DNA of 64,000 nucleotides from IMG/VR virus record IMGVR_UViG_3300042691_041718, positions 122,466-186,465 of that record; one strand, written 5' to 3'. The stretch is from a virus. Below, in pieces: positions 1-55,459 of this stretch (position 1 is its first letter; every line of letters starts with the position of its first letter). The notes below the pieces were generated by a model. The model was given only the letters and a program-made list of their open reading frames with translations, made no database searches and was not told the origin of the DNA. A program made the position numbers and the translations under genes.

Positions 1-867
1 TAATTGACCATTATCCCAAGTACCAATGTTATAATAACCAATAGATATTACTCTATCACTTACACACACTTTTGATTTCTTATCAAAGAAACCTGGATTG
101 AAACTAGTTAAATCTTTTTTAATTTTACTAATTAACATCAATTCATTAAAATTAAAGTTTACTAAGCTCTTTTTAAGATTATAAGCTGATTTAAGATCTA
201 AACCAAGAATCCATTTTATAACACTTGTTGATAATTTAAATTGTCCTATTGGTTGATTAACAATACCATATTCAAACAAACCATTATCTTTAATACCATA
301 ATAAAGTTCAATCTCATTTCTATCATATGGTACATCATTTACATATCTTTTAAGTGATGAAAATCTATTAAATATAGATTTAACATCATCTGAATTTAAT
401 TCGAATAAAAAATAAAAAAGATAGTCATCTGGTAATTTTTCATTATTTGGTAAGACATCTTTTTGACCAAGTGCTGTTAAACACTTTAAAAATGATGTGA
501 AAATGTTTTTACCAGCCATAGTAATTTCTGATTCAGTTAGGGGTTCTAAATCAGTTGAAAATTCTACATTAGTTTCTTTCTCCTGTATACCATTATCAAT
601 AAAATCTTTTATTAATGATTCTATTTCATTTTTAGTATTATCATCTAATATGTTAATCGCATTTGATAATCTAATATCAGAAGGTATATCACTCAAATCA
701 TCTTCTCTACTAATATTAAATTCTCTATTTACTATATTTTTGATATATTCTAAATCATCACCTTCTAAAGTTGAATATAAATACTCAACCCATTCACCTA
801 ATGAGTTAAAATCTTCTCTATTTTTACTAAAAGACTCATTAATGAATTCTAAATATTTCTTAATCAT
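1..867 (-). CDS. hypothetical protein, 3'-truncated by window edge; N-terminus resembles a T4-type capsid-targeting sequence
   Basis: Hand translation from ATG at 867 (MIKKYLEFINESFSKNREDFNSLGEW...) stays open to base 1. It is absent from the ORF track because it has no stop in the window. TAATATATA lies 4 nt upstream. Confidence 0.8.
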   Translation of the reverse strand, partial: MIKKYLEFINESFSKNREDFNSLGEWVEYLYSTLEGDDLEYIKNIVNREFNISREDDLSDIPSDIRLSNAINILDDNTKNEIESLIKDFIDNGIQEKETNVEFSTDLEPLTESEITMAGKNIFTSFLKCLTALGQKDVLPNNEKLPDDYLFYFLFELNSDDVKSIFNRFSSLKRYVNDVPYDRNEIELYYGIKDNGLFEYGIVNQPIGQFKLSTSVIKWILGLDLKSAYNLKKSLVNFNFNELMLISKIKKDLTSFNPGFFDKKSKVCVSDRVISIGYYNIGTWDNGQL

Positions 868-918
868 ATATTATATATTAAAATTAAAAATTCACTTTAT
901 AAAATATATATATAGAAT

Positions 919-1476
919 ATGAGTGATAAGTTATTTGAATTAGAAATAAGAAAAATTATACAAGAGTATAAATTATTGGAGATTGAAGAAGAATGGAAAA
1001 ATGAGCTAATAAATTCAAATAAGGAAACATTTCTAAAAGAAATTTATCACAAAAGGGGATTTGATAATGAGGTATCAAATCCAAAAGAGACATCAGTTGA
1101 TAAAGGTGTTGTTGTGGATAAAAGAAGGGATCACATTTCCGATAATATTAAGAAGTTATTTCGTGAGATAGTTAAATTAACACACCCCGATAAAACTTTT
1201 AATAAGAAAAATCGTCTTGAATTAAATGATCTTTATATAAAGGCTAAAATAGCATCAGAAGAATCAAATATTTATGATTTATTAGTTATCTGTGATAAGT
1301 TATCTATAAAATGGTCAATTGATTTATATGAGAAAAAAATATTAGAAGATAATTTAGAGGTTAAGAGAAATAAAATAAAATCTATAGAGAGTTCTTATAT
1401 CTGGTTATGGATTAATGCTGAAACTATAGAAGAAAAATATAAAATAGTAAATCTATTTATTGAAAAAAATAGCTAA
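919..1476 (+). CDS. J-domain (DnaJ-like) co-chaperone protein
   Basis: IKKLFREIVKLTHPDK contains the J-domain HPD motif followed by a helix III-like segment. Confidence 0.75.
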   Translation: MSDKLFELEIRKIIQEYKLLEIEEEWKNELINSNKETFLKEIYHKRGFDNEVSNPKETSVDKGVVVDKRRDHISDNIKKLFREIVKLTHPDKTFNKKNRLELNDLYIKAKIASEESNIYDLLVICDKLSIKWSIDLYEKKILEDNLEVKRNKIKSIESSYIWLWINAETIEEKYKIVNLFIEKNS

Positions 1477-1481
1477 ATATT

Positions 1482-2785: not shown

Positions 2786-3016
2786 TTAAAGTTGTAATAT
2801 AGATTGAAAAAGAGAATCTGCAAATTCTCGTTCAAAAAATACATCACAAGCCTCTCTTCCATCATGCATGATTAAAGCTATTTGATATTGTTCTTCGTCT
2901 TTCATTTTAACTAGAGTAAGTACATCACCTTCATTTGATTCTGCAACTCTTAATAAATCAACGTCTTCTTCTGAGTCATATCCTGAAAAGACTTCTATAA
3001 ATTTTAAGTTTTCCAT
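2786..3016 (-). CDS. hypothetical acidic protein
   Basis: 76-aa ORF, last gene of the minus-strand array, with an A-rich leader. Confidence 0.65.
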   Translation of the reverse strand: MENLKFIEVFSGYDSEEDVDLLRVAESNEGDVLTLVKMKDEEQYQIALIMHDGREACDVFFEREFADSLFQSILQL

Positions 3017-3033
3017 ATTTTAATTTGTGTTTA

Positions 3034-3060
3034 AAAGACTCGCCTTTTTGACGAGTCTTT
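3034..3060 (-). terminator. conserved intergenic hairpin of the fibre array (terminator-like)
   Basis: AAAGACTCG...CGAGTCTTT inverted repeat; T-tract follows on the minus strand. Confidence 0.75.
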
Positions 3061-3069
3061 ATTTATATA

Positions 3070-6000
3070 TTAAAGTCCAAATCTTCCTCTTGAACTATTG
3101 AAGTTTTGTAGAACTTCAGTTGCTGATAAAGATCGATTATAAACTTTACCTGAGTAAATATTACCTTTCCATAATTCAGGAAAAACACTTGATCCACTAC
3201 CAATTCTCGCTTCAAAATTAGACCAGTTATTCATATTATAAGAAGTTATATTTGATGTAGTTGATCCATCTAATACACCATTTCTATATAAGTAAATTTT
3301 ATATACACCTGATTCTTTTTTGAATACTGCCGTATAATTAACGATTGTGTTAAGAATATCAGCACCTGTTAATTGAGAAGAAACCCAGGTTTGCGTAAAT
3401 CCAACAACATTAATATTTGCAAAAACTTTTCCAGAATTTGAACCGCTTCTAAACTTCCAAAGAGAAATAGAATTTGTTTGGTTAGAAGATCCAAGAGTTA
3501 TTATTTCATGATAAACATCCGAATTGTCCGTTACTTTAACCCAGAAGTCATATGTTATGTCTGTATCGTTAAACCTAAAGTTCGAACCCAAATTAACATA
3601 ATCATTAACACCGTCGAATAATATAGAACCTCCATTAGTAGAATCATAAGTTGGTCCATTAACTAAAGTACCATTATTACCGGCAGCTAAATCGAACCAA
3701 GTTGTTCCTGTTCCTGGATATGAGTTTGCATTACCTGCATCTAAATTAAGTACTAAACCGTTAGTGTTATAAACTGGAGTTCCAACTTGTCTTCCTAAAG
3801 CAGTTTGGAATTTTTGTACAATAGTTCTCATAGTAAGCGCATCTGTATCATTAAAGTTTTCTTGGAAATATACAATTGATAAATTTCTACTACTTAGATC
3901 TGATACCGCACCATTTTCACTTCTACCTCCTATAAGACATATTAAATTCACTGGATAATAAGCAAGTGATCTTGAATAAGATGTAGTATCTTTTAAAGTT
4001 TTAACCGTATTTGAATCTGTTCTATACGATTGGTAAAAACCTCTGGTGTCTGTATCTGCGAAACTAACAAAATCATCAGAGTTAACTCCACCAAATGTTG
4101 TAGTACTATTATGTGCAATTTGGAATGCTCTTACAGGGAAGTAACTAAGTGCACCAACATCAGTTGAAGAAATACTACTATTAGTAGTTGAATAAACACC
4201 TAATCCAGAAGCAATTGCAAAATTTACTGGGTTTAAAAACGTATTGGCATAACCTGTTGTACCATTTGGTTGAGCACCGCTAGATGTGTGAGTCCATCCG
4301 CCGTTAAACACCAATCTATATGCAGCATCCAAATCTCTAGGATCTTTTAAGTTCCATTTATGAGAAGTAGCGCTTCCGCCTACGAATGGATAAAGAGCTT
4401 TCATTTTAGTCCAGATACCAGCAGCTTTCAAATCAGTTACTAAAGTATTAACCGCAGAAGCTTGTTGAAAGCTAGTGATATTAGCCGCATTCAAGAAAGC
4501 TTGAGCATTTGTATCCGAAACTAATGGAACACTTACTTGTCTACCTAAAGTAGTTTGGAATGTTTGTACTGCTGTGTAGAATGCTGCTGATTCTGCATCT
4601 GTTAGACCATCTCCGATTGAATAAAAAGCAGTTTCTTTATTGTCAAATCCAGAAGCCACTAATTCATTATTCCTTGCACCTATGTAGTAGTTTATTGTTG
4701 GTCTTTCGGTCACACCATTAGATGAATCAATAAGTACTTTTACACCATCTTTCCATGCATTAACAGTAGTAGTTGAAATTCTATTACCCATCATTAAACC
4801 CCTGGTGTTATTAATAGGGCTGGTGAAAGGTGATAATGAGGTATTGAAAATAATATTACCTAATGTTGTTCCATTAGGATTTGACATTAATAAATATCTT
4901 TGTGGGGAATTATTATCATTACATCCACCCATGATAGCACTCACACTCCATGTAGTTCTACTATATGTAGAATGATGGAAACTACCTAGTGTTAATATAG
5001 ATGATGGTACCAATTTAGTATCAGCATATGCTGTTGTACCATTAGGTAAAGCACCAGTTGAGCTATGGGTCCATCCACCATTGAATACTAACCTATAAGC
5101 TGCGTCTAAATCTCTCGGATCTTTTAAATTGAATTTATGAGATGTAGCCGTACCACCAACAAATGGATAAATAGCTTTCATTTTAGTCCATATACCGACT
5201 GCTTTCAAATCAATAACTAATGTATTGATAGCCACCGCTTGATTTCCATCGGTAATTCCTGCCACAGTCAAGAAACTAACAGCATCTGCGTCACTAACAT
5301 AAGGAGTTCCGACATGACGACCTAATGTTGTTTGAAATTTTTGAATTGATGTATATAGATTAGTAGTATCAGTATCACTCATACCGTCAGCTATAACTGA
5401 AAATGCAGTCTCTCTATTTGAATAATAATTAGCCCCACTTGGACTTCCCATCGCACCAATTGCTATATTTACCGAACCGGCAATCGTAGAATCTGCAGAA
5501 CTTGTCAACACATTTCCATTTTTACCAAGTTTAGCATTTGTACTCACTTTATTAGTCCAATACCAGCCTCTTGAATCTGCCTGTATACCACCGTCTAATA
5601 AAACAGAACTGTCTGAGTTTCTAGCAAGTATATTATTATAAATTCCTGCTTTATACCAAGCAGATAGCCATGTCCATTTGCTCAAATCACTAGAACCCAT
5701 ATCTATCTGATCTGTTCCAGTATTACCATTAGTTATTGAGTAATATCCTAAGAAAGGTGTTAAATTACTAGATGGATTATAAAAAGTATTAGCATAACCA
5801 GTTGTTCCATTAGGTTTAGCACCAGTCGATGCATGTGTCCATCCGCCATTAAATACTAATCTAAATGCAGCATCCAAATCTCTTGGATCCTTTAAGTTAA
5901 ATTTATGTGAAGTTGCCGATCCACCGACAAATGGATAAATAGCTTTCATTTTTGTCCATATTCCATATGTCTTTAAATCATTTACTAATGTATTGATAGC

Positions 6001-6117
6001 TGCAGCCTGTGTTAAATCTGTAATTCCTGCAGCCGAAATGAATGCTTGTGCATCTGCATCTACTGCATTGACTACCGAAGTAACAAAAGATCTCCAGCCA
6101 ACTCTTGCTTGTGTCAT
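3070..6117 (-). CDS. fibre/adhesin protein: three repeats of the DADAQAF...DPRDLDAA domain plus a C-terminal LamG/concanavalin A-like domain
   Basis: Three copies of KMKAIYPFVGG...HKFNLKDPRDLDAA; C-terminal LDAGN...FDGVNDYV...YNRSLSATEVLQNF is typical of LamG-like phage fibres. Confidence 0.75.
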   Translation of the reverse strand: MTQARVGWRSFVTSVVNAVDADAQAFISAAGITDLTQAAAINTLVNDLKTYGIWTKMKAIYPFVGGSATSHKFNLKDPRDLDAAFRLVFNGGWTHASTGAKPNGTTGYANTFYNPSSNLTPFLGYYSITNGNTGTDQIDMGSSDLSKWTWLSAWYKAGIYNNILARNSDSSVLLDGGIQADSRGWYWTNKVSTNAKLGKNGNVLTSSADSTIAGSVNIAIGAMGSPSGANYYSNRETAFSVIADGMSDTDTTNLYTSIQKFQTTLGRHVGTPYVSDADAVSFLTVAGITDGNQAVAINTLVIDLKAVGIWTKMKAIYPFVGGTATSHKFNLKDPRDLDAAYRLVFNGGWTHSSTGALPNGTTAYADTKLVPSSILTLGSFHHSTYSRTTWSVSAIMGGCNDNNSPQRYLLMSNPNGTTLGNIIFNTSLSPFTSPINNTRGLMMGNRISTTTVNAWKDGVKVLIDSSNGVTERPTINYYIGARNNELVASGFDNKETAFYSIGDGLTDAESAAFYTAVQTFQTTLGRQVSVPLVSDTNAQAFLNAANITSFQQASAVNTLVTDLKAAGIWTKMKALYPFVGGSATSHKWNLKDPRDLDAAYRLVFNGGWTHTSSGAQPNGTTGYANTFLNPVNFAIASGLGVYSTTNSSISSTDVGALSYFPVRAFQIAHNSTTTFGGVNSDDFVSFADTDTRGFYQSYRTDSNTVKTLKDTTSYSRSLAYYPVNLICLIGGRSENGAVSDLSSRNLSIVYFQENFNDTDALTMRTIVQKFQTALGRQVGTPVYNTNGLVLNLDAGNANSYPGTGTTWFDLAAGNNGTLVNGPTYDSTNGGSILFDGVNDYVNLGSNFRFNDTDITYDFWVKVTDNSDVYHEIITLGSSNQTNSISLWKFRSGSNSGKVFANINVVGFTQTWVSSQLTGADILNTIVNYTAVFKKESGVYKIYLYRNGVLDGSTTSNITSYNMNNWSNFEARIGSGSSVFPELWKGNIYSGKVYNRSLSATEVLQNFNSSRGRFGL

Positions 6118-6136
6118 TTAATTTTAATTTTTTTAA

Positions 6137-6163
6137 AGAGACTCGTCAAAATGACGAGTCTCT
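6137..6163 (-). terminator. conserved intergenic hairpin of the fibre array
   Basis: AGAGACTCGTCA-AAA-TGACGAGTCTCT perfect 12-bp stem. Confidence 0.8.
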
Positions 6164-6174
6164 ATTTATATATT

Positions 6175-8580: not shown

Positions 8581-8599
8581 ATTTTTTTTATTTTTTAAA

Positions 8600-8625
8600 A
8601 AAGACTCGCCCTTTGACGAGTCTTT
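8600..8625 (-). terminator. conserved intergenic hairpin of the fibre array
   Basis: AAAGACTCG...CGAGTCTTT, near-identical to 3034-3060. Confidence 0.75.
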
Positions 8626-8636
8626 ATTTATATAGT

Positions 8637-18518: not shown

Positions 18519-18701
18519 AAAAAAAATTATTTGTTATTTGACAGTGTGTCGTCAATATTTTTTTCTGCTAAATACAAATATAAATTTTAATAGTTTTTTG
18601 TGGATTTTATATTATCCACGATTTTTAATATAAATATTTTATATGTTATATATTTAATAAAAATACTGTTTTTTTTTCAAACCCCTTTTTTTATTGAAAA
18701 A

Positions 18702-18932
18702 TTACATATTGTATAATAAATTTTTTATATTTTTTATAGAATTTGAATAATTTAATGGATCACAAGAACCATTTTCAGTTAAATACTCATTCACAACATC
18801 CATTAGATCAGGAGTTTGAATAAATATAAAGTTTGATTTGGATTTTACTTTTTCAACTATAAATTTGAATCCTTTTATTTTTAAATATGCTGTTAAATAT
18901 AAATCCGATGTTGTGTATTTTTTTTCGTCCAT
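18702..18932 (-). CDS. DUF5659-like small protein
   Basis: YTTSDLYLTAYLKIKGFK matches the recalled DUF5659 N-terminal pattern. Confidence 0.6.
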   Translation of the reverse strand: MDEKKYTTSDLYLTAYLKIKGFKFIVEKVKSKSNFIFIQTPDLMDVVNEYLTENGSCDPLNYSNSIKNIKNLLYNM

Positions 18933-19012
18933 TTTAATATTTTTTTTATTTATATCTTATATATTTATTTTTTTATTCAATAAATTGTATATTTCTATAT
19001 TTTTTAATTTTT

Positions 19013-19579: not shown

Positions 19580-19693
19580 TATAATTAATAATAATTAATT
19601 TATGTATATATATTATTAATTAATTTCTTTTTTAATTAAACATAAAAAAAGATAAAAAAAATTAATATATACTAGATAAATTAATTCACAAAA

Positions 19694-20506: not shown

Positions 20507-20520
20507 ATAATATATAATAA

Positions 20521-21450
20521 ATGAGTAATTATAGTTTAAATAAATTTGTTAGGGAAGCAAAACCAACAGATAATTTAGTAACAATATATAATATCAATGG
20601 TTTACCAACCTATACAGTTAACCCACTTTCTATAACTAGGGTTTTAGTTCAAAATAATTTAGTTGTTTTAACTACAAACAAAAACGTAGTTATAAATCTC
20701 GACTTTACTGATAATAATGAAGCTAGATTAGCACTTGTTGAATTACAAAGACAATTCGATATAATCAGAAAAAGAATCACAACACAAGCTCAAGCTCAGG
20801 CTCAAGCAGTTGAAATAGTACAATCTGGTACCGACTTTACCCAAATTTATAATCAAATTATTTATGGTACACAAAGTGGTGGTACACAAAGTGGTGGTAC
20901 ACAAAGTAGTATTGAGAGTAGAATAGTTGACTTGGTTAAAATGATCAGTCAAAGTATGAATACCCTACAACAAAATATCGGTATTACAGATGCTGGTCCC
21001 GATTTTATAAGTATGTATGATATAAAGAAATTAGAATATAATCCAATTCTATCAACATACTCAACAACTGATAGTTTAACACAAAGAATAAAAACACTTA
21101 CAGAACATATAGCTCAGGATATTTACACATTAAATCAAAAACAAGAAAAAATTTCAAATTCATTTAACCCAGTAAACACTTTTAGTGGCAATGAACCTGT
21201 TGATATATTAAACTTAACTTTTAATGAATTGAGTGAAGGACCTGTAACAATTTTAATAAATGGAATTTATTTAAAACCGAGTAATTCAATTCAGAATATC
21301 GCATTTTTTTCAAATGATGGTATGCAAACAGCTACTGATTATATACAAGAGGGATCTATACTCTATATAAATCCAAATAAATTAGGATATGATATTGATG
21401 AGAATGATACAATTACAATAGAATATTTAACTAGAAATATTCTATTTTAA
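20521..21450 (+). CDS. hypothetical, probably virion protein
   Basis: 309-aa ORF; TAATATATA 4 nt before the ATG; low-complexity QAQAQ/TQSGG linker. Confidence 0.7.
   Translation: MSNYSLNKFVREAKPTDNLVTIYNINGLPTYTVNPLSITRVLVQNNLVVLTTNKNVVINLDFTDNNEARLALVELQRQFDIIRKRITTQAQAQAQAVEIVQSGTDFTQIYNQIIYGTQSGGTQSGGTQSSIESRIVDLVKMISQSMNTLQQNIGITDAGPDFISMYDIKKLEYNPILSTYSTTDSLTQRIKTLTEHIAQDIYTLNQKQEKISNSFNPVNTFSGNEPVDILNLTFNELSEGPVTILINGIYLKPSNSIQNIAFFSNDGMQTATDYIQEGSILYINPNKLGYDIDENDTITIEYLTRNILF
20866..20910 (+). repeat. 15-bp tandem repeat x3 (GTQSG)
   Basis: GGTACACAAAGTGGT x2 + GGTACACAAAGTAGT. Confidence 0.9.
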
Positions 21451-22169: not shown

Positions 22170-22639
22170 TAATCAGTTCTATATTTTATACTATATATTG
22201 TATATGACTTTATATATTCAATTTGACTATCGTTCAATACTTCATTAAACTTTGGCATAATCATTGATTTTGGCATCCATTTATTAAATAATACTTCAGT
22301 ATGTTTATATTTTTTTGATAAATCACTTATATCTTTAACACTTTCATTAAAGTATTTAAAAGAAATACTATCATTTAATTTTGGACCAGCAAAATCTTTA
22401 TCAAAAGAGTGACAACTAGCACAGTATCTAGAGAATAAAACTTTACCAGAATCAATATATTCTGGTAAAATATTTATCTCAGATAAAGTATCATCTTTAT
22501 CTCTATAATCAGAAATATTTCCAGTTGTTGGTTTATTATAACTATTAATTTTTGGCTCAAGATAAGTTCTACAAAATGTGTGTATTAAAAACCAAATACC
22601 AAATATAACCAAAAACTCATATATTATTAGTTTTTTCAT
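22169..22639 (-). CDS. membrane-anchored class I c-type cytochrome
   Basis: N-terminal hydrophobic helix; GKVLFSRYCASCH (CxxCH), AGPKL, candidate distal Met in SMIMPKF. Confidence 0.75.
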   Translation of the reverse strand: MKKLIIYEFLVIFGIWFLIHTFCRTYLEPKINSYNKPTTGNISDYRDKDDTLSEINILPEYIDSGKVLFSRYCASCHSFDKDFAGPKLNDSISFKYFNESVKDISDLSKKYKHTEVLFNKWMPKSMIMPKFNEVLNDSQIEYIKSYTIYSIKYRTD

Positions 22640-22995: not shown

Positions 22996-22997
22996 AA

Positions 22998-24261: not shown

Positions 24262-24336
24262 AATTACTTATAAAAAAAATTTTAAAAAAGTTTATAAAAA
24301 GTATGTAGGAAAGTGGTAAGTTTTTATATATAAATT

Positions 24337-25137
24337 ATGTTATTAAATAAATTTATAAAAGTTAAAGTTTCCAATAGAACTAAAAAATATTTCCTTGAAA
24401 AGGGATATATTGAAGATAATGGTTATTTTATGGTTTTACCAGAGGATATGAATGATTCTAATAGAACAAAAGTAAAATGTGAATGTGAATATTGTGGAGT
24501 AATAAATGATGTAACTTGGTCAAATTATATATTACAAATGAATAAAGCGGAAGAGAAAATATATTCATGTCATAAATGTCATTTTAATAAGACAAAAATC
24601 ATCTTTATGAAAAATTATGGGGTAGATAATATTCAAATTTTAGATCAAGTTAAAAATAAAATTAAAAAAACTTGTATGGAAAAATATGGTGTTGATTGTG
24701 TTTTAAAATCAAAAAAGATAAAAGATAAAATTAAAAATATTTTTATAGAGAAGTATGGTGTAGATCACCCTATGAAAAATGAAAAAATTTTTAATAAAGC
24801 TCAGAAAAACTCATATAGAACTATAAAATATAAAGAAACTGAATTATATTATAAAGGAACGTATGAATTAGATTTTATAGAATATTGTATAAAAAATGAA
24901 ATTAATATAGAAAATGGTCCAACTATAAAATATAAATTGTGTGAAAAAGAAAGAGTTTATTATTCGGATTTCTTAATAAGAGATATTAATCTAATTGTTG
25001 AAGTAAAGTCAACTTATACTTATTGTGATTATGATGAAAATATAGCAAAAATGAAATACACAATAGAGAATGGTTATAACTTTATTTTCATTATAGATAA
25101 GGACTATACTGATTTTGAAAAAATAATAAATTCTTAA
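24337..25137 (+). mobile_element. free-standing homing endonuclease (KYGV repeats + PD-(D/E)xK nuclease)
   Basis: Repeats MKNYGVD/MEKYGVD/IEKYGVD; Cys pairs; C-terminal YYSDF...LIVEVKS. Confidence 0.7.
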
Positions 25138-25165
25138 TACTCTTTTTCATAAAGTATATATTAAA

Positions 25166-26140: not shown

Positions 26141-26173
26141 AAATAATTTTTATGTTAAATTTTATATATTTTT

Positions 26174-26204
26174 TTTGAAATGTTTAATAAAATCTATATA
26201 TTTG
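26174..26204 (+). promoter_or_regulatory. Bacteroidota-type primary-sigma promoter (-33 TTTG / -7 TAnnTTTG)
   Basis: TTTG-N19-TATATTTG upstream of ATG 26214. Confidence 0.7.
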
Positions 26205-26213
26205 TATTATAAA

Positions 26214-27193: not shown

Positions 27194-27195
27194 TT

Positions 27196-28333: not shown

Positions 28334-28396
28334 CAACACACACCCTACGATAAAAGGGAGTATCTTGTATTTTATATATAAAAATAAAATACTAAT

Positions 28397-30358: not shown

Positions 30359-30473
30359 TTTCAAATATACTTTTTATTGTATATATAAAATAGTCTTAGG
30401 TCTCCGAACCTACTTATGGATAAAAAAAGTAAATTGAGTTCTTAATATATACATTAAGAATTTTTTTTATTTT

Positions 30474-34011: not shown

Positions 34012-34487
34012 ATATAATCATTTCTATTTATATTAAAACTTCTAATTGGTCTACCAATATCAATAGTTTCGGTTGGGATAATACCAGTATTTATTTCAAA
34101 ATTATCTCTCCAATCTATTAAAACTCTCTCATAATTATTTCTATTTTTATTATAGAATTTTAGATTACTTAAATCATAAGTATATGATGGATTCGTAGAT
34201 TCAAATGTTTCTAAATGATATTCATAATCCCAAGTAGATTTAAATATAAAAAAATCAGTTACTGAATATCCAAATTCATCTAACATTGGATAAATTGATT
34301 TAATATCCTTATCATCTTTTAATTTTAAAACACTCTGTATTCTATTTATTTTTCTAAATTTTCTTTCTTTTACAACACCAAATGCTGTTAGATCTGTATC
34401 AAAAGAATAATTACCATAAATAGGGTTATAGTAAGAGTTTTCTTTTTTTAAATAATTACTTTGACTGAAAAAAACAGGTGCTGACAT
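34008..34487 (-). CDS. hypothetical, probably structural protein
   Basis: 159-aa ORF; AAATATATA 4 nt upstream of the ATG. Confidence 0.7.
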   Translation of the reverse strand: MSAPVFFSQSNYLKKENSYYNPIYGNYSFDTDLTAFGVVKERKFRKINRIQSVLKLKDDKDIKSIYPMLDEFGYSVTDFFIFKSTWDYEYHLETFESTNPSYTYDLSNLKFYNKNRNNYERVLIDWRDNFEINTGIIPTETIDIGRPIRSFNINRNDYI

Positions 34488-34503
34488 AATCTATATATTT
34501 ATT

Positions 34504-42359: not shown

Positions 42360-42422
42360 CTTATTCTATTTGATTTTTTAGTATATATTAAAAAAATGCT
42401 TTCTTTCATGTAAAATTTTTCA

Positions 42423-42430
42423 TATATTTG
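42423..42430 (+). promoter_or_regulatory. Bacteroidota-type -7 element
   Basis: TATATTTG 4 nt before ATG 42435; a second TATATTTG at 42669-42676 lies before ligA. Confidence 0.55.
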
Positions 42431-42434
42431 TAGA

Positions 42435-42656
42435 ATGAAGAATTTATTTGATAAAGCTAAAAGTAAAAAAGAAGAGTCATTCTGTCTTTATTGTAAATCT
42501 AGTTTTATACCAGATAAAAGAAATTTGAAAAGAGGATGGGGGCTTTGTTGTTCAAAGTCTTGCGCAGCTTCATATAAAACTAAACTAAAACACTTAAAAG
42601 GAGTAGAAAAGATTAGAGAAACTAGAGATTATAAATTAAATCAATTAAGAATTTAA
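42435..42656 (+). CDS. small zinc-finger protein with a C-terminal RD motif
   Basis: FCLYC...CCSKSC; ends TRDYKLNQLRI. Confidence 0.7.
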   Translation: MKNLFDKAKSKKEESFCLYCKSSFIPDKRNLKRGWGLCCSKSCAASYKTKLKHLKGVEKIRETRDYKLNQLRI

Positions 42657-42680
42657 TAATAATTTTATTATATTTGTATT

Positions 42681-44549
42681 ATGATAGAACAATTAAAGAA
42701 TAAGATTAAAGAAGCAAACGAGGCATATAGAATTGGAAAACCAATTATGTCTGATAAAGAATATGATATTCTTGTAGAAGAGTTATCTGATATGTCACCA
42801 GATGATGAATTGTTATCTGTTGTAGGACATGAAATTCTTGACGAAACGAGAAAAACTCGTCTACCTATTCCAATGGCTTCTATGAACAAAATTAAGTCTT
42901 TAGAAGAAATTAAAGACTGGCAACGTCTTAAACTTATCCCAAACTCTGTTGAAATTATCTGTACACCTAAATATGATGGTCTTTCTTTATGTAAAGATGA
43001 AGAAAACAACGGTGATGCTATCACTCGTGGAGATGGTGTTTATGGTCAAAAATCAAATGAACACTATAAACTTATAGGAAACAAGTTATATGACATTGAA
43101 AATGATATAGATCCTTTCGCACCTATTACTTTCTCACATAGTTATGGTGAAGTTATTATGCCTAAACGAGTATTTATCGATAAATACTCAAATGATTATG
43201 CTAACCCAAGAAACTTCGTGGCTGGTCTTATCAACTCACCAGATGCGAGAGAAGCTTTAAAAGATTGTAACTTTATTAAATATGGTGCTATTCCATCATC
43301 AAAATTCAGAAATCATTTCACCACTAAACAACAAATATTAGATGAATTAAATGAGAATCAAAAAGTAAAAGTACCTTATCATGTTTGTGGCATTTTAGAT
43401 TTAACAGAAGAATTACTTATCTCTTTATTTAAAGAATGGTCTGAAGAATATGAGATTGATGGTATTATCTTAGAGGTAAATAACTTAGCAACACAATCAT
43501 CATTAGGTCGTGAAACTTCATCAGGTAACCCAGTATTCGCAAGAGCATTCAAACACCCAAGTTTCGAGCAATCAGCTGAAACAGAAGTAATTGGTATTAC
43601 TTGGAATATTTCTAAACAAGGTTTATTAAAACCGGTATTACATATCAAACCTGTTAAATTAGACGGAGTTACTGTATCTAATGTAACTGGTAATAACGCT
43701 CGTTTCGTAAAAGATATGGGATTGGGAGTTGGTGCTAAAGTTGTTGTTAAACGTAGTGGTATGGTTATTCCAATTATTGCTGACGTATTAGAAACAGTTG
43801 AATTTGTTTTACCAACTATCGAAGGTGTTGAGATTGATTGGAATGAGGCTGGTATTGAGTTAATCACATTAACTGAAACAGAAGAGCAAAAATTAAAAAA
43901 GAATATCGCTTTCTTTGAGATATTAGAAGCTGATAATGTTTCAGAAGGTGTTATCACACAATTGTGGGATGCTGGTTATAAAACTATTAAAGATATTTTA
44001 AATCTTAAAGTAGAAAACTTAGAAAAGATTGATCGTTTTGGTAAACGTAAAGCTAAAATTGTTTATGACTCAATTCAAAAGTCTATCACTGGTGTTCAAT
44101 TATCTAAATTACAACACGCTACTGGCATCTTCTCTGGATTAGGAAGTAAAAAGTTAGCTCTGTTAGAACACTTCAATGAAAAACCTACTGTTGGAAAAGT
44201 TATGGAAATTGAAGGATTTGCTGAGATTTCTGCTAAAACTTATGTTGATAATTATGATAAGTTCTTCGAGTTTATTTCTGATTTACCAGTTACTATTTCT
44301 GAGAAAGTTGAAGTAGTACAAGTTTCTAATGACTTAGAAGGTAAGCAGTTTGTATTCACAGGAGTTCGTCGAAAAGAATTAGAAGAGGTTATTGAATCTC
44401 GTGGTGGTAAAATTGGTGGTAGTGTTAGTAAAAACACAACACACTTAGTTATGAAAGCGATTGGTTCTGGTTCTTCTAAAGAGAAAAAGGCTCTTGATTT
44501 GGGAGTAGAAGTTATTACTGTTGAACAATTAGAGGATCTATTAAAATAA
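42681..44549 (+). CDS. ligA: NAD-dependent DNA ligase
   Basis: AYRIGKPIMSDKEYD, TPKYDGLS (KxDG), TRGDG..G, ANPRNFVAG, IDGII, OB domain, HhH repeats and a C-terminal BRCT domain. Confidence 0.95.
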   Translation: MIEQLKNKIKEANEAYRIGKPIMSDKEYDILVEELSDMSPDDELLSVVGHEILDETRKTRLPIPMASMNKIKSLEEIKDWQRLKLIPNSVEIICTPKYDGLSLCKDEENNGDAITRGDGVYGQKSNEHYKLIGNKLYDIENDIDPFAPITFSHSYGEVIMPKRVFIDKYSNDYANPRNFVAGLINSPDAREALKDCNFIKYGAIPSSKFRNHFTTKQQILDELNENQKVKVPYHVCGILDLTEELLISLFKEWSEEYEIDGIILEVNNLATQSSLGRETSSGNPVFARAFKHPSFEQSAETEVIGITWNISKQGLLKPVLHIKPVKLDGVTVSNVTGNNARFVKDMGLGVGAKVVVKRSGMVIPIIADVLETVEFVLPTIEGVEIDWNEAGIELITLTETEEQKLKKNIAFFEILEADNVSEGVITQLWDAGYKTIKDILNLKVENLEKIDRFGKRKAKIVYDSIQKSITGVQLSKLQHATGIFSGLGSKKLALLEHFNEKPTVGKVMEIEGFAEISAKTYVDNYDKFFEFISDLPVTISEKVEVVQVSNDLEGKQFVFTGVRRKELEEVIESRGGKIGGSVSKNTTHLVMKAIGSGSSKEKKALDLGVEVITVEQLEDLLK

Positions 44550-44595: not shown

Positions 44596-44622
44596 CCCAT
44601 ATCTTAATATATAAGATATGGG
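44596..44622 (+). promoter_or_regulatory. perfect 11-bp hairpin burying the AUG of the LAGLIDADG gene, with the late motif across the loop
   Basis: CCCATATCTTA-ATATA-TAAGATATGGG. Confidence 0.8.
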
Positions 44623-45409
44623 AAAGAAAAAACAAATTGATGAAAAAGAGATTATTAGACTTTATACCGAAGAGAATTTTAGTGCTAGTAAAATAGGAAG
44701 ACTTTTTAATGTTGATGTCGCTACTATAACAAACAGGTTAAAAGTTAATAATATTGAGGTTAAAAAGACTCATAGAAAATATTTGATAAACAAAGATTAT
44801 TTTGAAGTAATAGATTCGGAAGATAAAGCTTATTGGTTGGGTTTTTTGATGGCTGATGGTTATAATAGTGGTAAGTTTATTAGAGTGGATATACAAGATG
44901 AGGGACATTTGGAAAAATTGAGAGATAAAATTTATGTAAATTGTGATATGCCGGTTAGAAAAAAGAAAAATATAATAAACGGTAAAGATATTTTTTATCT
45001 AACAATACAAGATAAAAAGTTATTATCTGATGTTGATTGTTTAGGATTAGTTAAGAGAAAAAGCAAAATTGTTACTTATCCAAATATAGATTCGGAATTT
45101 GATAGATTTTTTATAAAAGGTATTTTTGATGGTGATGGTTGTTTGACTTACTCAATGGATAAAAATTATAGAAGATATACTTTTTCCATTGTTGGTTCTT
45201 ATGATTTGATGAAGACTTTACAATTAATACTTTCTAAAAATAATGTTAATATTAAATTAAGAAAAATGAAGTCGATATATTCAGTTTATCTAAGAGGTAA
45301 TAGACAAATAATTAAGGTTTTAGATTGGTTGTATGATGAAACAACCACTCATTTAGATAGAAAATATGAAAAATATCAAGATATGTTAAATTACTATAAA
45401 AATAAATAA
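44618..45409 (+). mobile_element. LAGLIDADG homing endonuclease
   Basis: KAYWLGFLMADG and FFIKGIFDGDG motifs; N-terminal HTH. Confidence 0.9.
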
Positions 45410-47620: not shown

Positions 47621-48307
47621 ATGAATAAATATAAGGCAATGACGGCAGTCAATAAAATTTTAACGGCAATTATGAAAGAAAACATTTTATTCTCAGAACA
47701 AGAAAAGTTTTTCGTAGAAAAAACAGGTAAAGATTTTTCAACTCTTTACAAAAAGTATTATCCAAAATTAATTTATTACACTTCTAAAATGTGTAATGAT
47801 CCTCAAAAAACAGAAGACATAGCAACAGATTCGTTCTTAACAGCTTTTGAAAAGATTGATAAGTATGATGATGAAAAAGCTCAATTTTCAACTTGGCTAT
47901 TCACTATAGCTAAAAATCTTGCTCTTCAAGCAATCAAAAATGATAAAAGAAATGTATCTCTTGATACAGAGTATGATGATGAAGGTACAACAATGAAAGA
48001 TTTTATACCTGAAGATTATCAAACTAATTTAGAATTATATGAGTCTAATGATATTAAGGCTTCTATTATGATAGAACAAATATCTAAATTAAAAGAACCA
48101 TATAAAACAGTCATTGAAATGAGAGAGATTAGAAAAATGTCTTACAAAGAAATCTCTGATCAATTAGGTAAAAACCTAAGTACAATCAAATCACAAATAA
48201 GAAATGGTAGGTCAATTCTTATTGGTGAAACTAAAAACGACTTTAAGAAAATTGATGAAGTTTATGAAGGTCGTAGATGGAGAAATTGTATTGATACAGT
48301 TAAATAA
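47621..48307 (+). CDS. ECF-type (sigma-70 group 4) RNA polymerase sigma factor
   Basis: EDIATDSFLTAFEKIDKYD...FSTWLFTIAKN (region 2); L.EPYKTVIEMR...MSYKEIS..LG.NLSTIKSQIRNGR (region 4). Confidence 0.9.
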   Translation: MNKYKAMTAVNKILTAIMKENILFSEQEKFFVEKTGKDFSTLYKKYYPKLIYYTSKMCNDPQKTEDIATDSFLTAFEKIDKYDDEKAQFSTWLFTIAKNLALQAIKNDKRNVSLDTEYDDEGTTMKDFIPEDYQTNLELYESNDIKASIMIEQISKLKEPYKTVIEMREIRKMSYKEISDQLGKNLSTIKSQIRNGRSILIGETKNDFKKIDEVYEGRRWRNCIDTVK

Positions 48308-50972: not shown

Positions 50973-51509
50973 ATGAAATCAATTGAGTATTTATATAGTT
51001 TAGTAGATCAATCTAACTTTACTACAATTGGATATACTTCAAATGATAAAAATTTAAAAAATGAATTTATTTCTAAATTATCATATATTGATTTAAGAGA
51101 AATAGATCCATCTTTTTCTTTTAATGGTAGTCTTAAACAAAAGATAAGAGATATTAGATTAGATTCTATTCTAAATGATTCGGAAGATTTATCAAAAATA
51201 AACTTTAAATACATATTGATTGATTACAACGATTTACCACATTTACAAAAAAGTGATGTATATAAATCAATACAATTAAATCAAATAGTTGAAAAGTTAA
51301 GAAGTGAGTGTGTAGAATGTGGATTAAAAGTAATTTTTACTGCACCAACATACACTTCATTAGAAGTAACACCATCTCAAAATTTAAAGGGAGGGAGTGG
51401 AAGTATGTATATTGCTGATTTGGCTTTTATGATTGATAAGGGAGTTGCTAAACTAATGAAAAATAGATTTGGAGCGGATAACGAAACATTTTCATTAAAT
51501 GAATTATAA
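50973..51509 (+). CDS. degenerate DnaB/RecA-like fold protein
   Basis: YILIDY, GGSGSMYIADL, KNRFG resemble DnaB C-terminal motifs; no intact Walker A. Confidence 0.45.
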   Translation: MKSIEYLYSLVDQSNFTTIGYTSNDKNLKNEFISKLSYIDLREIDPSFSFNGSLKQKIRDIRLDSILNDSEDLSKINFKYILIDYNDLPHLQKSDVYKSIQLNQIVEKLRSECVECGLKVIFTAPTYTSLEVTPSQNLKGGSGSMYIADLAFMIDKGVAKLMKNRFGADNETFSLNEL

Positions 51510-52568
51510 TGATATATAATTACTAATTATGTTAGATATATTTTCAAAATCTGTATATTTTATCACTATTAAATTTATATTCATATTATTACAATAATTA
51601 ACTTTTATATTATCCTTAGTTTTAATATCTAATAAATAAGAATGTCCTCCAAAAGCTTTAACTTCTCCATAATGTTGAATACCATTATATTCTATACAAG
51701 TATTATATTCGGGTAAATAGAAGTCAAATCTTAATTTTTTCTTATAAACACAATCATCAAAAGTTTTTTGTGTTTCATATTTTATACCTTTTTTAGTCAA
51801 AAACCAAGATATAATCTTTTCACCTTTTGACTCATTACATTTAGCACAACCTGATCCAGATGTATGTAAATAAGGTTTTTGTTTAAAAATTCCGTGTTTT
51901 TTACATATTATATTAACATCAGTTTTGAAGTTTTTATATACTGATAAACTATAATCATATTTATCACCATGTACTTTAATCGATTTATCTACAAAATCAT
52001 CATTATCATATACAAATCCACCACATTTCTGGCAACCAGATACAAGATGGTTTGATATTCTTTGTGTAAACACACCATGAATTTCACACTTGATATCTAT
52101 AAAGTCCGACAATTTATATCTTTCTTCACAGAGGAGATAAGTATAAGAACCATTATGTTTATCATTAAATCTTTTTATTAATTCATCATTTTTTATACAT
52201 TTCACATTACACATTGAGCATCCACTACCATTTAAGTGTGATTGTGGAGTTTGGTTAAAAATTCCGTGTTTAGTACAAATTATCTCGACTTTAGTCCTAT
52301 TATTAATATAATTCACCAATGAGTAATCATATAAATTACCATGTTTACTAACCGACTTTTTGATAAAATCATCCTTTGATAAAGATGGCGCACCCTTTGT
52401 ACATTTACCACAACCACCACCTCGTTTATGATGATGTGGTGTTTGTTCAAAAACGCCATGAATCTTACATATTATCTCTATTTTTGTTATATTGTTAATA
52501 TAATTAACTAATGAGTAGTCATAAGCATCACCGTGTATAGACTTAAACTTTTCTATCTCTTTTTTCAT
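51504..52568 (-). mobile_element. homing endonuclease with DUF723-like Zn repeats + PD-(D/E)xK/Vsr-like nuclease
   Basis: Four HG..YDYSL..Y......V.I.C..HG.F.Q....H..G.GC..C repeats; LRFDFYLPEYNTCIEYNGIQHY. Confidence 0.8.
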
Positions 52569-52677
52569 TTTCTATTTTTTTCTTTCTACTGAACATTCCT
52601 TTACAAGATCTTCTACAAAAAAGAGAGTCAGATCTTTTATCAACCAATTCTTTATTACACCATTTACACTTTTTCAT
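52543..52677 (-). CDS. small zinc-finger protein (44 aa, not in the ORF track) overlapping the endonuclease start
   Basis: Hand translation: MKKCKWCNKELVDKRSDSLFCRRSCKGMFSRKKKIENEKRDRKV. Confidence 0.65.
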   Translation of the reverse strand: MKKCKWCNKELVDKRSDSLFCRRSCKGMFSRKKKIENEKRDRKV

Positions 52678-52697
52678 TATTTATATATTAAATAATG
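52675..52697 (-). promoter_or_regulatory. perfect 9-bp hairpin burying the AUG, with the late motif across the loop
   Basis: Minus strand CATTATTTA-ATATA-TAAATAATG. Confidence 0.8.
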
Positions 52698-52740: not shown

Positions 52741-53181
52741 ATGATAGTAAGTAATAGAAAGGCTCGATATTCGTTTGATGTAATTGAAGAATTTGATTGC
52801 GGTATTATTTTAACAGGTAGTGAAGTTAAATCTATCAGAAGAGGTGATGTTACCTTAGTTGATTCGTATGCTTACTTTAAGTCTGGTGAGTTATGGATTA
52901 AAAACTTAAAAGTTTCTCGTTACAAATGGTCTCATAAAATTGAAGTTCATGATGAAAATCGTGAAAAGAAATTATTATTACATAAGAAAGAGATCGCTAA
53001 AATAGATAGACTTATACAAGATAAAGGAACTACTATTATACCATTAGGTATTTTCATTCAAAATAACAGATTGAAATTGAAAATTGGTGTTTGTAAAGGT
53101 AAGAAACTTTGGAATAAAAAGCAAGATATCAAACAAAGGGATATTGATAGAGATGCTAAAAGAGAAATGAATTTTAGATAA
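52741..53181 (+). CDS. smpB: SsrA-binding protein
   Basis: NRKARY....EEFDCGIILTGSEVKSIR, R.KKLLLHKKEI, G.TIIPL, KGKK..NK...IK.RD..R. Confidence 0.95.
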   Translation: MIVSNRKARYSFDVIEEFDCGIILTGSEVKSIRRGDVTLVDSYAYFKSGELWIKNLKVSRYKWSHKIEVHDENREKKLLLHKKEIAKIDRLIQDKGTTIIPLGIFIQNNRLKLKIGVCKGKKLWNKKQDIKQRDIDRDAKREMNFR

Positions 53182-53531
53182 TGGGTAAAAACTTTGATGA
53201 ATATCAAAAAATACTTAAAGAATTAAATCAGTCTAATACTGAGGAAGATATCATTTCAAATATTGAAAAGATAGTTAAAGGATTTAGTGTTGATTTTTAC
53301 AGAGAAGATTTAACAAAAAATCCTTTTTATAAATCTATCTTATTAGAGATAAAGGAAGATGTATTAGAAGATCTTTATAAGATTAGACAAACTATTTTAG
53401 ATGAAATGGAATCAATAAGTAGGTCTATATTAGAAGAGGTTGATGTAGATAAACTAATTCAATTAAAAGTTGAATGTCAGTTACTTTTAATTGAATTAGA
53501 TTATAAAATAGAAGATATTAAATCTATATAA
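53181..53531 (+). CDS. hypothetical helical protein
   Basis: 116-aa ORF coupled to smpB. Confidence 0.6.
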   Translation: MGKNFDEYQKILKELNQSNTEEDIISNIEKIVKGFSVDFYREDLTKNPFYKSILLEIKEDVLEDLYKIRQTILDEMESISRSILEEVDVDKLIQLKVECQLLLIELDYKIEDIKSI

Positions 53532-55296
53532 GATCAATCATTCTTTCCATGAATTTAATACCTTTCATTGATTTATTATAATCATCATCATCAAAATTAC
53601 GCATCATATTCTCAACTTCATCGCTGTATCTAAATTCCTCCATAATTCTTATGGTTCTGTATGATAATCTATTAGTATCATGTATATTGTGAATATTTTG
53701 AAGATTACTAATAATAATTGAAATATCATAAAGATTTACTATTTCTCTGGATCTAATTTTAGTTGTAAATTTTTTACCAATTCTCAATATATTTTCAAAT
53801 ACTTCTTTTAACTTTTCGTTATCAGATTTCATTATTAACTCATATGAATTCTTAAACTTAGGAGTGGTTGATTGATAATCCTCTAATAATTTTCTATATT
53901 GTTCTTTAATTGATTGAAGTGAACTCTCAACATAATTTTTCAGTTGTTCTTCATTTTGCAGTTTTTCAATACTTTCAAGACCATCAAAAAAGTAATAAAA
54001 TCCACTTATAATACTCGCATTAAAACCTCTAAATAGTGTAATAATAACATAATCATCTTTCAATATTTTCAACAAGATTGATTTTAGATTAGACATTTCA
54101 TCGATTTTAAGATTTTGATCTATTTTCATTTTGTCAACTAAATAATCAAGTCTTTTATCAACATTAATCTTTTTAATTTCTTCATTACTCATTAAAGCAG
54201 TAGCTCCGGATTTACTCTCAATTCTTTCTTTTCTAATACTTGTTAAGTCTCCTTCCATCTGTGGGAGAAACTCATCTATGTAAAATATTATAGCAAAATC
54301 TGAATCTTCTAAATCTTCTTTATAAATAGATTTGTTTTTTTCATCACTTCTATCATACTTTTGTATTTCAAAAGTTCTAAGACTATTAATATCTTTACGA
54401 ACACTCAAGTTCCAAGTATTAGGATCTTCATTCTCAGCTTTTTTGGGAGAATCACCAACAACATGTAAATCTTCACTTGTATGTTTATAAAGATGTACTT
54501 TGTAATTATCACTTTGTAAACCAACACCACTCTCAGATAAAATCCAAGATCCTATATAATTACGTTCTCTATCACTTACATTACTATATAAATGATCAAT
54601 TACACTAGCATATTCTACACCGTTTTCATCATAATAATAATCAGCAGATCCACCACTAAGATTTTTACCATAAGCAACATATGATCTAAAACGACCATAT
54701 TCATCATGAGATGAGAAAATTTTAGCCCAATTTAAGTGATAAGAATAGTCTCTACTATAATTTATATCACCACTACAACTATAAAAGGCTATAATATCAC
54801 CTGTTTTTAAATGTAGATTTTTAACATAATCATTATCAACTATACTTAATTCTCCTTTTGTTAAATCGACACCTATTAACTGGGAAGCGGAGTCAACCGC
54901 TTTCTCCTTTAATAGAGAAATTTCTTCTGGTTCAAATGGTTCAAATTTTCTACTCTCACTTTTACTTTTAACTCTTTCTCCACTTCTATTCGGAGTAACA
55001 CTAAATCCTTTATAACCATCAGTTGCGGAAAACCAAAATTTAATAGCCCAAGTATGATTAACCGAATCTTCTGGTGCTCTCATCTTAATAGCTTTATTGG
55101 CTAATATATTAACATCAAAAAAGTTATCAGTTATAGAACTTAAAGGAATTGAATTATTTTCACATATTTTCTTTAAATCTTCAATAAAAGGTTTGCTATT
55201 TAATTTCATTTTAGATAACCACCCAGTTGTCTTTGTTAAAAATTGAGATTCAAATTTCTCATTTAAAAAACTTTGTCTATATTTAAGGTATTTCAT
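53524..55296 (-). CDS. hypothetical protein with a capsid-targeting-like N-terminus
   Basis: MKYLKYRQSFLNEKF; TAATATATA 5 nt upstream. Confidence 0.7.
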   Translation of the reverse strand: MKYLKYRQSFLNEKFESQFLTKTTGWLSKMKLNSKPFIEDLKKICENNSIPLSSITDNFFDVNILANKAIKMRAPEDSVNHTWAIKFWFSATDGYKGFSVTPNRSGERVKSKSESRKFEPFEPEEISLLKEKAVDSASQLIGVDLTKGELSIVDNDYVKNLHLKTGDIIAFYSCSGDINYSRDYSYHLNWAKIFSSHDEYGRFRSYVAYGKNLSGGSADYYYDENGVEYASVIDHLYSNVSDRERNYIGSWILSESGVGLQSDNYKVHLYKHTSEDLHVVGDSPKKAENEDPNTWNLSVRKDINSLRTFEIQKYDRSDEKNKSIYKEDLEDSDFAIIFYIDEFLPQMEGDLTSIRKERIESKSGATALMSNEEIKKINVDKRLDYLVDKMKIDQNLKIDEMSNLKSILLKILKDDYVIITLFRGFNASIISGFYYFFDGLESIEKLQNEEQLKNYVESSLQSIKEQYRKLLEDYQSTTPKFKNSYELIMKSDNEKLKEVFENILRIGKKFTTKIRSREIVNLYDISIIISNLQNIHNIHDTNRLSYRTIRIMEEFRYSDEVENMMRNFDDDDYNKSMKGIKFMERMIDLI

Positions 55297-55459
55297 AAAA
55301 GTATATATTAAACTTATACTCTCATTTTTTATATAATTTTTATTGTAGTAAGTAGCTAATAAATAAATTTTAGTCTTTAATAAAGTTAGTGAAATTCAAA
55401 TTCTACCTTGAGATAATATATATGATAACAAAGACTATTTATTATATAATAAATGATAA

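Follow-up and report, generated by a model that had tools for sequence, protein, structure and literature searches.

The window analysed here is a 64,000-nucleotide (nt) stretch of IMG/VR record IMGVR_UViG_3300042691_041718, a linear contig of 191,442 bp with 28% G+C and a CheckV completeness of 73%; in contig numbering it corresponds to bases 69694-133693 on the minus strand. Its predicted proteins are phage-like and include tail fibres, virion structural proteins, an NAD-dependent DNA ligase, many homing endonucleases and DNA methyltransferases. An A/T-only box, TTAATATATA, sits 4-5 bases ahead of the ATG in about one in seven genes, and the nature of this box, together with that of the messages it may give rise to, is the subject of this study. 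Judging by its sequence, the source is an uncultured giant T4-related phage of Bacteroidota. Megablast against a phage collection revealed no close DNA relatives, and locus searches for relatives of single proteins returned few or near-identical ones only; the nearest complete genomes, found by tblastn against the phage collection, are LR745206.1 (634,780 bp) and LR756502.1 (642,428 bp). The Mar_Mega_1 paper (PMC9723777) credits both genomes to Al-Shayeb et al. 2020 (PMC7162821), where Bacteroidetes are the predicted hosts of the five genomes larger than 634 kb; neither paper has anything on promoters or leaderless messages. The major capsid profile PF07068 matches the contig in two short pieces only, and the contig therefore lacks the core head module. 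G accounts for only 2-8% of the bases at positions -18 to -5 of the contig genes, whatever their class, and the absence of a Shine-Dalgarno signal upstream of any gene class fits the expectation for a Bacteroidota host.

By itself, the 9-mer is not over-represented in the AT-rich window (32 copies vs. 28.8 in dinucleotide shuffles). The non-random feature is where the box sits, not how often the 9-mer occurs. The arrangement ATATATANNNNATG (ATATATA-N4-ATG) is present eight times in the window against 1.18 expected, a number reached in none of 100 shuffles, and 26 times in the whole contig against two for the reversed control, with 0-1 copies at spacings N0-N3. ATATATA is also the top enriched 7-mer in 60-nt upstream regions (18.7-fold), and 86 of its 160 copies on both strands are sense-oriented and lie no more than 60 nt upstream of the start of an open reading frame (ORF). 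Anchored on our own ORF calls (204 genes in the contig), the distance from box to ATG is bimodal, being nearly empty at 0-3 nt and at 7-14 nt, and we designate genes with the box 4-6 nt before the ATG as class C1 and those with the box 15-27 nt before it as class C2. C1 comprises 29 contig genes, eight of them in the window, with spacers of 4 nt (22), 5 nt (6) and 6 nt (2), and C2 comprises 35 contig genes, 11 of them at the peak spacing of 22 nt. About 45% of the putative box promoters adjoin the ATG. An earlier note on this DNA had placed the box 4 nt before the start codons at 867(-), 919(+), 20521(+), 24337(+), 34487(-), 44618(+) and 52677(-) and 5 nt before that at 55296(-), with longer spacings at four other genes. 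All eight sites are as described, the longer spacings are right as well (22 nt at 30474, 22 nt at 42359, 25/27 nt at 19579 and 42 nt at 63351), and the positional histogram that the note proposed as a check shows strong enrichment before starts in the form of the 4-6 nt mode.

The same bimodal shape is found in LR745206, where 62, 31 and 7 genes carry the box at 4, 5 and 6 nt and a second mode lies at 17-28 nt. ATATATA-N4-ATG occurs 74 and 75 times in LR745206 and LR756502, respectively, vs. 12 and 9 copies of the control. The contig and LR745206 share 99 reciprocal best hits (27-69% identity), among which C1 is paired with C1 in 10 of 17 cases (Fisher p 3e-7), C2 with C2 in 11 of 16 (p 1e-7), and box-less genes with box-less genes in 54 of 62. 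Since class is kept between orthologues, the predicted leaderless or leadered state is likely to be a selected property of each gene.

Several properties of the box point to a promoter. In both the contig and LR745206, the median gap ahead of genes with a box is 35-75 nt and about half of these genes have an upstream neighbour on the same strand, vs. gaps of 5-6 nt and a same-strand upstream neighbour in 83-88% for box-less genes. A logo of 295 aligned sites contains information only at tTTA+ATATATA and at the fifth downstream base, the base right after the box being rarely T; there is no -35 element, and nothing is conserved from -20 to -60. The consensus, tTTAATATATA with core ATATATA, does not fit the Bacteroidota sigma-A -7 box TAnnTTTG and has no -33 partner, and E. 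coli-type sigma-70 promoters are not enriched either, with fewer sites than in shuffles. We therefore consider it highly probable that the box is a promoter. The lone -10-type promoter envisaged in the earlier note is in line with a box that is oriented with its gene, stands at operon heads and has no -35 partner, and the translation-initiation element offered there as the alternative is a poor fit to a box that is also found at 15-27 nt, with a conserved A at the fifth downstream base. De novo searches among the box-less genes of LR745206 gave nothing convincing as a third promoter motif; the words enriched there were rejected as such, as they look like codons of a C-terminal tag shared by the upstream genes.

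The bases downstream of the box give an indication of where transcription might start. In C2 genes the fifth base after the box is A in 84% (contig) and 81% (LR745206) of cases vs. approximately 50% at bases 1-4 (p 4e-4 and 9e-10). This is the position taken by the A of the ATG in N4 genes, and a conserved initiating nucleotide would be expected to leave such a trace. Of the N4 genes, 82% and 76% have a T immediately ahead of the ATG vs. approximately 49% elsewhere (p 3e-5), and there is a weak depletion of A at -3 in the N4 class (39% vs. 53%, p 0.03). Polymerases prefer a pyrimidine-then-purine step at start sites. Transcription starts 4 or 5 nt after the -7 box in Flavobacterium johnsoniae, and the corresponding box of F. 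psychrophilum occupies -12 to -5 (PMC6847099, PMC9723704); applied to the phage box, this geometry would make the A of the ATG the +1 position for both N4 and N5, the two dominant spacings. With regard to translation, in most cases the terminal TA of the box and a following A or G, the first base of the spacer, close the reading frame, orthologues align from residue 1 onwards, and an orthologue with only 25% identity keeps the N-terminus MKYIKLYE together with TTTTAATATATA-N4-ATG, all consistent with the ATG after the box being the true start. The earlier proposal that a fixed 4-nt spacing brings +1 to or next to the AUG is supported by this geometry, which sets the predicted initiating nucleotide on the A of the ATG, and transcription is likely to start at the AUG or within 1-2 nt of it.

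To what class of promoter could the box belong? In LR745206, where orthologues of T4 core genes were located by phmmer over the complete genome, eight of ten T4 late-gene orthologues have a box 6-45 nt before the ATG: gp25 (6 nt), uvsW (8 nt), gp4 (18 nt), gp20 (19 nt), gp17 (22 nt), gp18 (28 nt), gp23 (30 nt) and gp19 (45 nt). The orthologues of gp3 and gp5 have no box, that of gp5 directly following upstream coding sequence. Neither gp43 and gp47 nor the gp55-like gene has a box, and the orthologues of gp44 and gp46 have one only at 42-48 nt. Core virion orthologues of LR745206 are thus mostly of the leadered class. This distribution agrees with the late-promoter reading of the earlier note, and it is from relatives that we infer the label "late". 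The T4 late promoter is TATAAATA at -13 to -6, and pockets of gp55 hold the adenines at -12, -9 and -8 (PMC7892883). When AATATATA is end-aligned with TATAAATA, six of eight positions are identical, including the adenines held by gp55 at -12 and -8, and the A at -9 is T. Exact copies of TATAAATA are seen only in hairpin modules of the window (described below), at 3016-3070, at 6117-6173 and upstream of 8580. Most likely, the box is a variant form of the T4 late element that serves the phage as its own promoter of the late type.

A candidate for the cognate sigma factor is encoded by the complete relatives, in the form of a 121-residue protein (positions 1516-1881 in LR745206 and 1510-1875 in LR756502). 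Its sole PHROG match is phrog_234, "late sigma transcription factor" (E 2e-7 and 1e-5, respectively); it has a weak Sigma70_r2 match and no significant match among PDB sequences. In T4, gp55 works with gp33 and the gp45 clamp at late promoters. The 121-residue protein is without the C-terminal third of T4 gp55, so that coupling to the clamp may differ, and gp45 (phrog_223) has a weak match in LR745206 only (E 1.8e-4). Alignment to T4 gp55 shows that the pocket residues N13, F86, Y97 and T99 are kept and that H95, the pocket residue that touches the -9 adenine in T4 (PMC7892883), is replaced by F; its co-variation with the T at -9 of the box is suggestive only. All huge LR7565xx phages encode a homologue of the gp55-like protein, as do Lak phages and cultured jumbo phages, and some of the jumbo-phage proteins carry the annotation late sigma. 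No RNA_pol_Rpb1_2 domain was found in the complete relatives, and no T7-type polymerase was found in a search that lacked a positive control. The gp55-like late sigma that the earlier note suggested looking for is therefore present in LR745206 and LR756502, and none was detected on this 73%-complete contig. A gp55-type phage sigma is, in our assessment, probably the reader of the box.

In the mechanism we propose, host RNA polymerase carrying a gp55-type phage sigma would read the box and start at the fifth, sometimes the sixth, nucleotide after it. For the 29 C1 genes, the start nucleotide would be the A of the ATG, and an mRNA opening with AUG would have to be translated as a leaderless message. 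For the 35 C2 genes, the same box 15-27 nt upstream would give a short, A-rich leader of approximately 11-23 nt. Given that the host phylum does without Shine-Dalgarno pairing, nothing would be lost by dropping the leader, and the 13-nt cassette of box, spacer and ATG would be the most compact self-contained expression signal. As a whole, a late promoter that is read by a gp55-type sigma and produces leaderless C1 messages is the explanation we favour, and we rate it as reasonably probable. The predicted C2 leaders (e.g. 42360-42381 and 26141-26162) are very uniform in length, with a mode of 18 nt in the contig and 16-17 nt in LR745206, and begin with an A-run, A making up 70-89% of the first three transcribed bases.

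A number of observations weigh against this explanation. On the 73%-complete contig, phmmer gave no match for T4 gp55, gp45, gp44 or rpbA, and neither a gp55-like gene nor phrog_234, phrog_12791 or phrog_223 (the gp45 clamp) was found; a different sigma factor, of the extracytoplasmic function (ECF) type, is encoded in the window itself (Sigma70_r2 60 bits, r4_2 42 bits). Genes outside the classical late set have the box as well, namely those for a Toprim protein, two DNA methyltransferases (Dam-type) and many homing endonucleases. ATATATA-N4-ATG is not enriched in the cultured Bacteroidota phages Tenacibaculum pT24 and Chryseobacterium MA9V-1, which have a gp55-like gene, nor in Xanthomonas XacN1 and Sphingomonas PAU despite their gp55-like genes, and it is weakly enriched in Lak-C1 (36 vs. 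15); the N4 design appears largely limited to this megaphage group. In T4 the box spans -13 to -6; the same geometry with an N4 spacer would make the T of the ATG the start nucleotide, and a start on the A needs 1 nt less. With only about 5% of messages leaderless in host Flavobacteria, efficient leaderless translation in the host phylum is an assumption. Finally, three RNA runs, lake-water metatranscriptomes from the same study, contain next to none of the sequence words of window positions 18601-28600, and as contigs they cannot show 5' ends.

How do other explanations fare? That the pattern is merely a composition artefact of a 28% G+C genome might be suggested by the 9-mer being no commoner than in shuffles, but the box-N4-ATG counts in window and contig, set against shuffles and reversed-pattern controls, refute this, the box is strongly orientation-biased, and the pattern is kept at orthologues with only 25-65% protein identity; there is next to no chance that this explanation is correct. 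A more substantial proposal is that the box acts in RNA, as an AU-rich landing pad for the ribosome or S1, as the site of a phage translational factor or as an RNA-processing site, with the real promoters further upstream. Translation initiation in Bacteroidota relies on unstructured A/U-rich sequence upstream of the start (PMC6847099), the phage encodes its own ribosomal protein bS21, and read-through transcripts would contain the box. Such a role is hard to reconcile with a box that has two distinct distances to the ATG (4-6 and 15-27 nt), that can lie as far as 45 nt ahead of a late-gene orthologue, and that stands at operon heads and divergent junctions but not at internal genes. Moreover, the conserved A at the fifth base after the C2 box has no obvious translational meaning, and the unrelated host -7 box has the same 4-5 nt spacing to the ATG. 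We consider an RNA-level function very unlikely.

The two remaining alternatives accept the promoter and differ from the favoured explanation in where transcription starts or in what reads the box. The start could be a few bases off the A of the ATG, at the G or beyond, with translation from a later codon or by another mechanism. The T4 geometry mentioned above, in which the box ends at -6 (PMC7892883), would allow this, and the choice of start site is not readable from DNA alone. On the other hand, an unused ATG would need no fixed spacing to the box, orthologue alignments run from residue 1, the T-then-A step is enriched at the proposed start, the conserved A at the fifth base of the leadered class indicates the same start position, and the host polymerase starts 4-5 nt past its own box, all of which makes an off-A start distinctly improbable. 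Alternatively, promoter and leaderless geometry could be as proposed and the reader could be the ECF-type sigma, in which case the class would not be "late" in the T4 sense. This sigma is 69% identical in LR745206 and is also present in LR756502, no third promoter motif was found that it could serve, and it is encoded on a contig without a detected gp55-like gene. A sigma with a region 4 would, however, be expected to need a -35 element, and it is the complete absence of such an element from the 295 aligned sites that disfavours the ECF sigma as the reader. The likeness of the box to the T4 late box, its position ahead of T4 late-gene orthologues, and the presence in every complete relative examined of a gp55-like protein with conserved DNA-pocket residues also favour a gp55-type reader, and we regard reading by the ECF sigma as unlikely, if clearly less so than an off-A start.

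The sites in the window are collected in Table 1. The C1 genes scanned encode three HNH homing endonucleases, an endonuclease VII-like protein, two further endonucleases, a DNA methyltransferase, a tail fibre and many proteins of unknown function. Genes of homing-endonuclease families are rich in boxes: 10 of 11 have one (seven C1 and three C2) vs. 31% of all contig genes (p 4.5e-5), examples being 24337-25137, 44618-45409 and 29477-30358. Late promoters often drive homing-endonuclease genes in T4 as well. From their sequences, these mobile nuclease genes seem to travel with a minimal 13-nt expression cassette; as mobile genes must bring their own expression signal, a cassette combining promoter and start would suit them.

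Table 1. Putative phage promoter boxes, host-type boxes and the ECF-type sigma factor gene in the window (window coordinates; spacings are from the end of the box to the ATG).
Feature	Position	Strand	Sequence or spacing	Gene and remarks
C1 box	865..880	-	TAATATATA+ATAT+ATG	start of gene 1..867(-), 332 aa in full contig
C1 box	906..921	+	ATATATATA+GAAT+ATG	start of gene 919-1476(+), 185 aa; divergent from the box at 865-880, 51 bp apart
C1 box	20508..20523	+	TAATATATA+ATAA+ATG	start of gene 20521-21450, 309 aa, no family match
C1 box	24324..24339	+	TTATATATA+AATT+ATG	start of gene 24337-25137, homing-endonuclease-like (phrog_15137, phrog_3339)
C1 box	34485..34500	-	AAATATATA+GATT+ATG	start of gene 34008-34487(-), 159 aa
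C1 box	44605..44620	+	TAATATATA+AGAT+ATG	start of gene 44618-45409, endonuclease (phrog_4645, E 4e-50)
C1 box	52675..52690	-	TAATATATA+AATA+ATG	start of 44-codon ORF 52543-52677(-), ahead of gene 51504-52568(-)
C1 box, 5-nt spacer	55294..55310	-	TAATATATA+CTTTT+ATG	start of gene 53524-55296(-), 590 aa
Perfect box, status uncertain	25148..25163	-	TAATATATA+CTTT+ATG	19-codon frame only; antisense to endonuclease gene 24337-25137
C2 box	18958..18964	-	25 nt	gene 18702-18932(-)
C2 box	19605..19613	-	25/27 nt	gene 19013-19579(-)
C2 box	19665..19671	+	22 nt	gene 19694-20506(+)
C2 box	22192..22198	-	22 nt	gene 21447-22169(-), D12-class N6-adenine DNA methyltransferase
C2 box	26163..26169	-	22 nt	gene 25166-26140(-), Toprim-like protein
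C2 box	28374..28380	+	16 nt	gene 28397-28975(+)
C2 box	30380..30386	-	21 nt	gene 29477-30358(-), weak SegE GIY-YIG match
C2 box	30445..30451	+	22 nt	gene 30474-30938(+)
C2 box	42382..42388	-	22 nt	gene 39117-42359(-), 1080 aa, phrog_29329
Box with longer leader, weaker case	63394..63400	-	42 nt	gene 59716-63351(-), virion structural/tail-spike-like
Host-type Bacteroidota -7 box	42423..42437	+	TATATTTG+TAGA+ATG, 4-nt spacer	start of 73-aa ORF 42435-42656
Host-type -7 box	42669..42683	+	TATATTTG+TATT+ATG, 4-nt spacer	start of NAD-dependent DNA ligase gene 42681-44549
Host-type -7 box	30356-30369	-	TATATTTG, 3 nt	gene 29477-30358(-), which also has a C2 box
ECF-type sigma factor gene	47621..48307	+		matches to Sigma70_r2 and r4_2

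Some of these sites have additional features. At 865-921, two N4 boxes stand back to back over a 51-bp divergent intergenic region, where an alternating run, ATATATATATA at 904-914, can be read as a box in either direction; on its sequence, this arrangement would be a minimal bidirectional leaderless promoter pair. The perfect box at 25148-25163 is an additional N4 copy that is absent from the earlier note, and may represent a micro-ORF, an antisense transcript or a decayed cassette. A repeated module lies between large minus-strand virion genes, at 3016-3070, 6117-6173 and 8580-8640(-), with similar sequences upstream of 10118 and 10389. It consists, in order, of a stop codon, (ATA)TATAAATA, which contains the exact T4 late consensus referred to above, a G+C-rich hairpin with a T-run, an A-rich stretch and an ATG. 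The hairpin could terminate the upstream transcript, or it could be the 5'-terminal stem-loop of a transcript begun at the box.

A second class of box may follow a similar design. A host-type -7 box, mostly TATATTTG and often with TTTG approximately 20 nt upstream, lies 3-7 nt before 41 gene starts in LR745206 (4 nt in 19 genes, 5 nt in nine, 3 nt in five, and 6 and 7 nt in four each); in this contig the class has only six genes. Raw counts of TAnnTTTG-Nk-ATG show a 3-nt periodicity that derives from coding sequence and blurs them, and for this reason only the analysis anchored on gene starts was used. The leaderless design thus seems to extend to presumed early promoters read by the host polymerase, and we treat the host-type class as support, not proof, for the 4-5 nt design. 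The bS21 of the phage is encoded outside the window, at contig 140294-140482(+) (PF01165, E 1e-11), in a box-less operon, and that of LR745206 at 296645-296839. In Bacteroidia, bS21 helps to hide the anti-Shine-Dalgarno sequence, and relatives of the phage are reported to carry S1 and initiation factors as well. It is tempting to speculate that a large part of the megaphage genes is expressed as true 5'-AUG leaderless messages, be it from early promoters of the host type or from the phages' own late ones, and that the phages' translation proteins may bias ribosomes towards these, creating a phage-specific translation channel; on present evidence we consider this possibility rather doubtful.

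Comparison with known systems shows which parts of the proposed design are familiar. With T4 late promoters the box shares its character as a lone 8-bp A/T element at the -10 position without a -35 partner, its location ahead of T4 late-gene orthologues in a complete relative and a gp55-like protein encoded by relatives; it differs in the T for the -9 A of AATATATA and the F for H95 of gp55, in a predicted start 5 nt after the box vs. 6 nt in T4, and in that about 45% of boxes adjoin the ATG. T4 late mRNAs have Shine-Dalgarno leaders. The system would join a promoter of the T4 late kind to leaderless initiation. In Actinobacteria, Deinococcus, archaea and lambda cI, leaderless mRNAs likewise have a -10-type element at a fixed distance of 5-7 nt before the ATG, no leader and no Shine-Dalgarno sequence, whereas the messages predicted here would belong to a promoter class specific to the phage, and leaderless mRNAs are rare in its host phylum. 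In poxvirus late promoters, which belong to a eukaryotic virus with its own polymerase, the initiator TAAATG overlaps the start codon and slippage adds a 5' poly(A) head. The likeness is that of a viral late initiator overlapping the ATG with almost no templated leader, and there is no evolutionary relation.

The sigma-A promoters of Bacteroidota (-33 TTTG, -7 TAnnTTTG) resemble the phage box in having an 8-bp box at -12 to -5 and a start 4-5 nt downstream (PMC6847099, PMC9723704), and the phage also has the host-type box at 4-5 nt, e.g. before its DNA ligase gene, but the ATATATA box neither fits TAnnTTTG nor has a -33 partner. Bacteroidota host genes are mostly leadered, with median leaders of 24-33 nt and approximately 5% leaderless in F. 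psychrophilum, and in F. johnsoniae the leader exceeds 10 nt in 87% of transcripts. Early promoters of the AR9/phiKZ type (AAATATATATTAT-N6-G+1) have an AT-rich box containing ATATATA and a start fixed a few nucleotides downstream; in contrast to the box described here, they are read by a virion multisubunit RNA polymerase and give leaders of at least 26 nt. The start-site map of phiKZ contains no leaderless transcript (PMC8244752), and that of AR9 has untranslated regions (UTRs) of 26-491 nt (PMC5312081). For phages of Bacteroidota or related to T4, a full-text literature search, the coverage of which was incomplete, found no published account of either this box or late messages without a leader.

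If confirmed, the box would provide the first promoter grammar for the largest known phages, which at 630-735 kb are uncultured, and the roughly 1,000 mostly unknown genes of each megaphage would become sortable into temporal classes from sequence. The 13-nt box-N4-ATG cassette is of practical use for deciding on start codons in these genomes, and it could serve as a minimal expression cassette for synthetic biology in Bacteroidota, provided that the cognate sigma is supplied. It would also explain how free-standing homing endonucleases carry their own expression signal. If our reading is true, T4-type late transcription has been rebuilt in these phages for a host without Shine-Dalgarno recognition, with about 45% of the promoters leaderless, a share that is not seen in F. 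psychrophilum (approximately 5%), phiKZ (none) or AR9 (UTRs of at least 26 nt).

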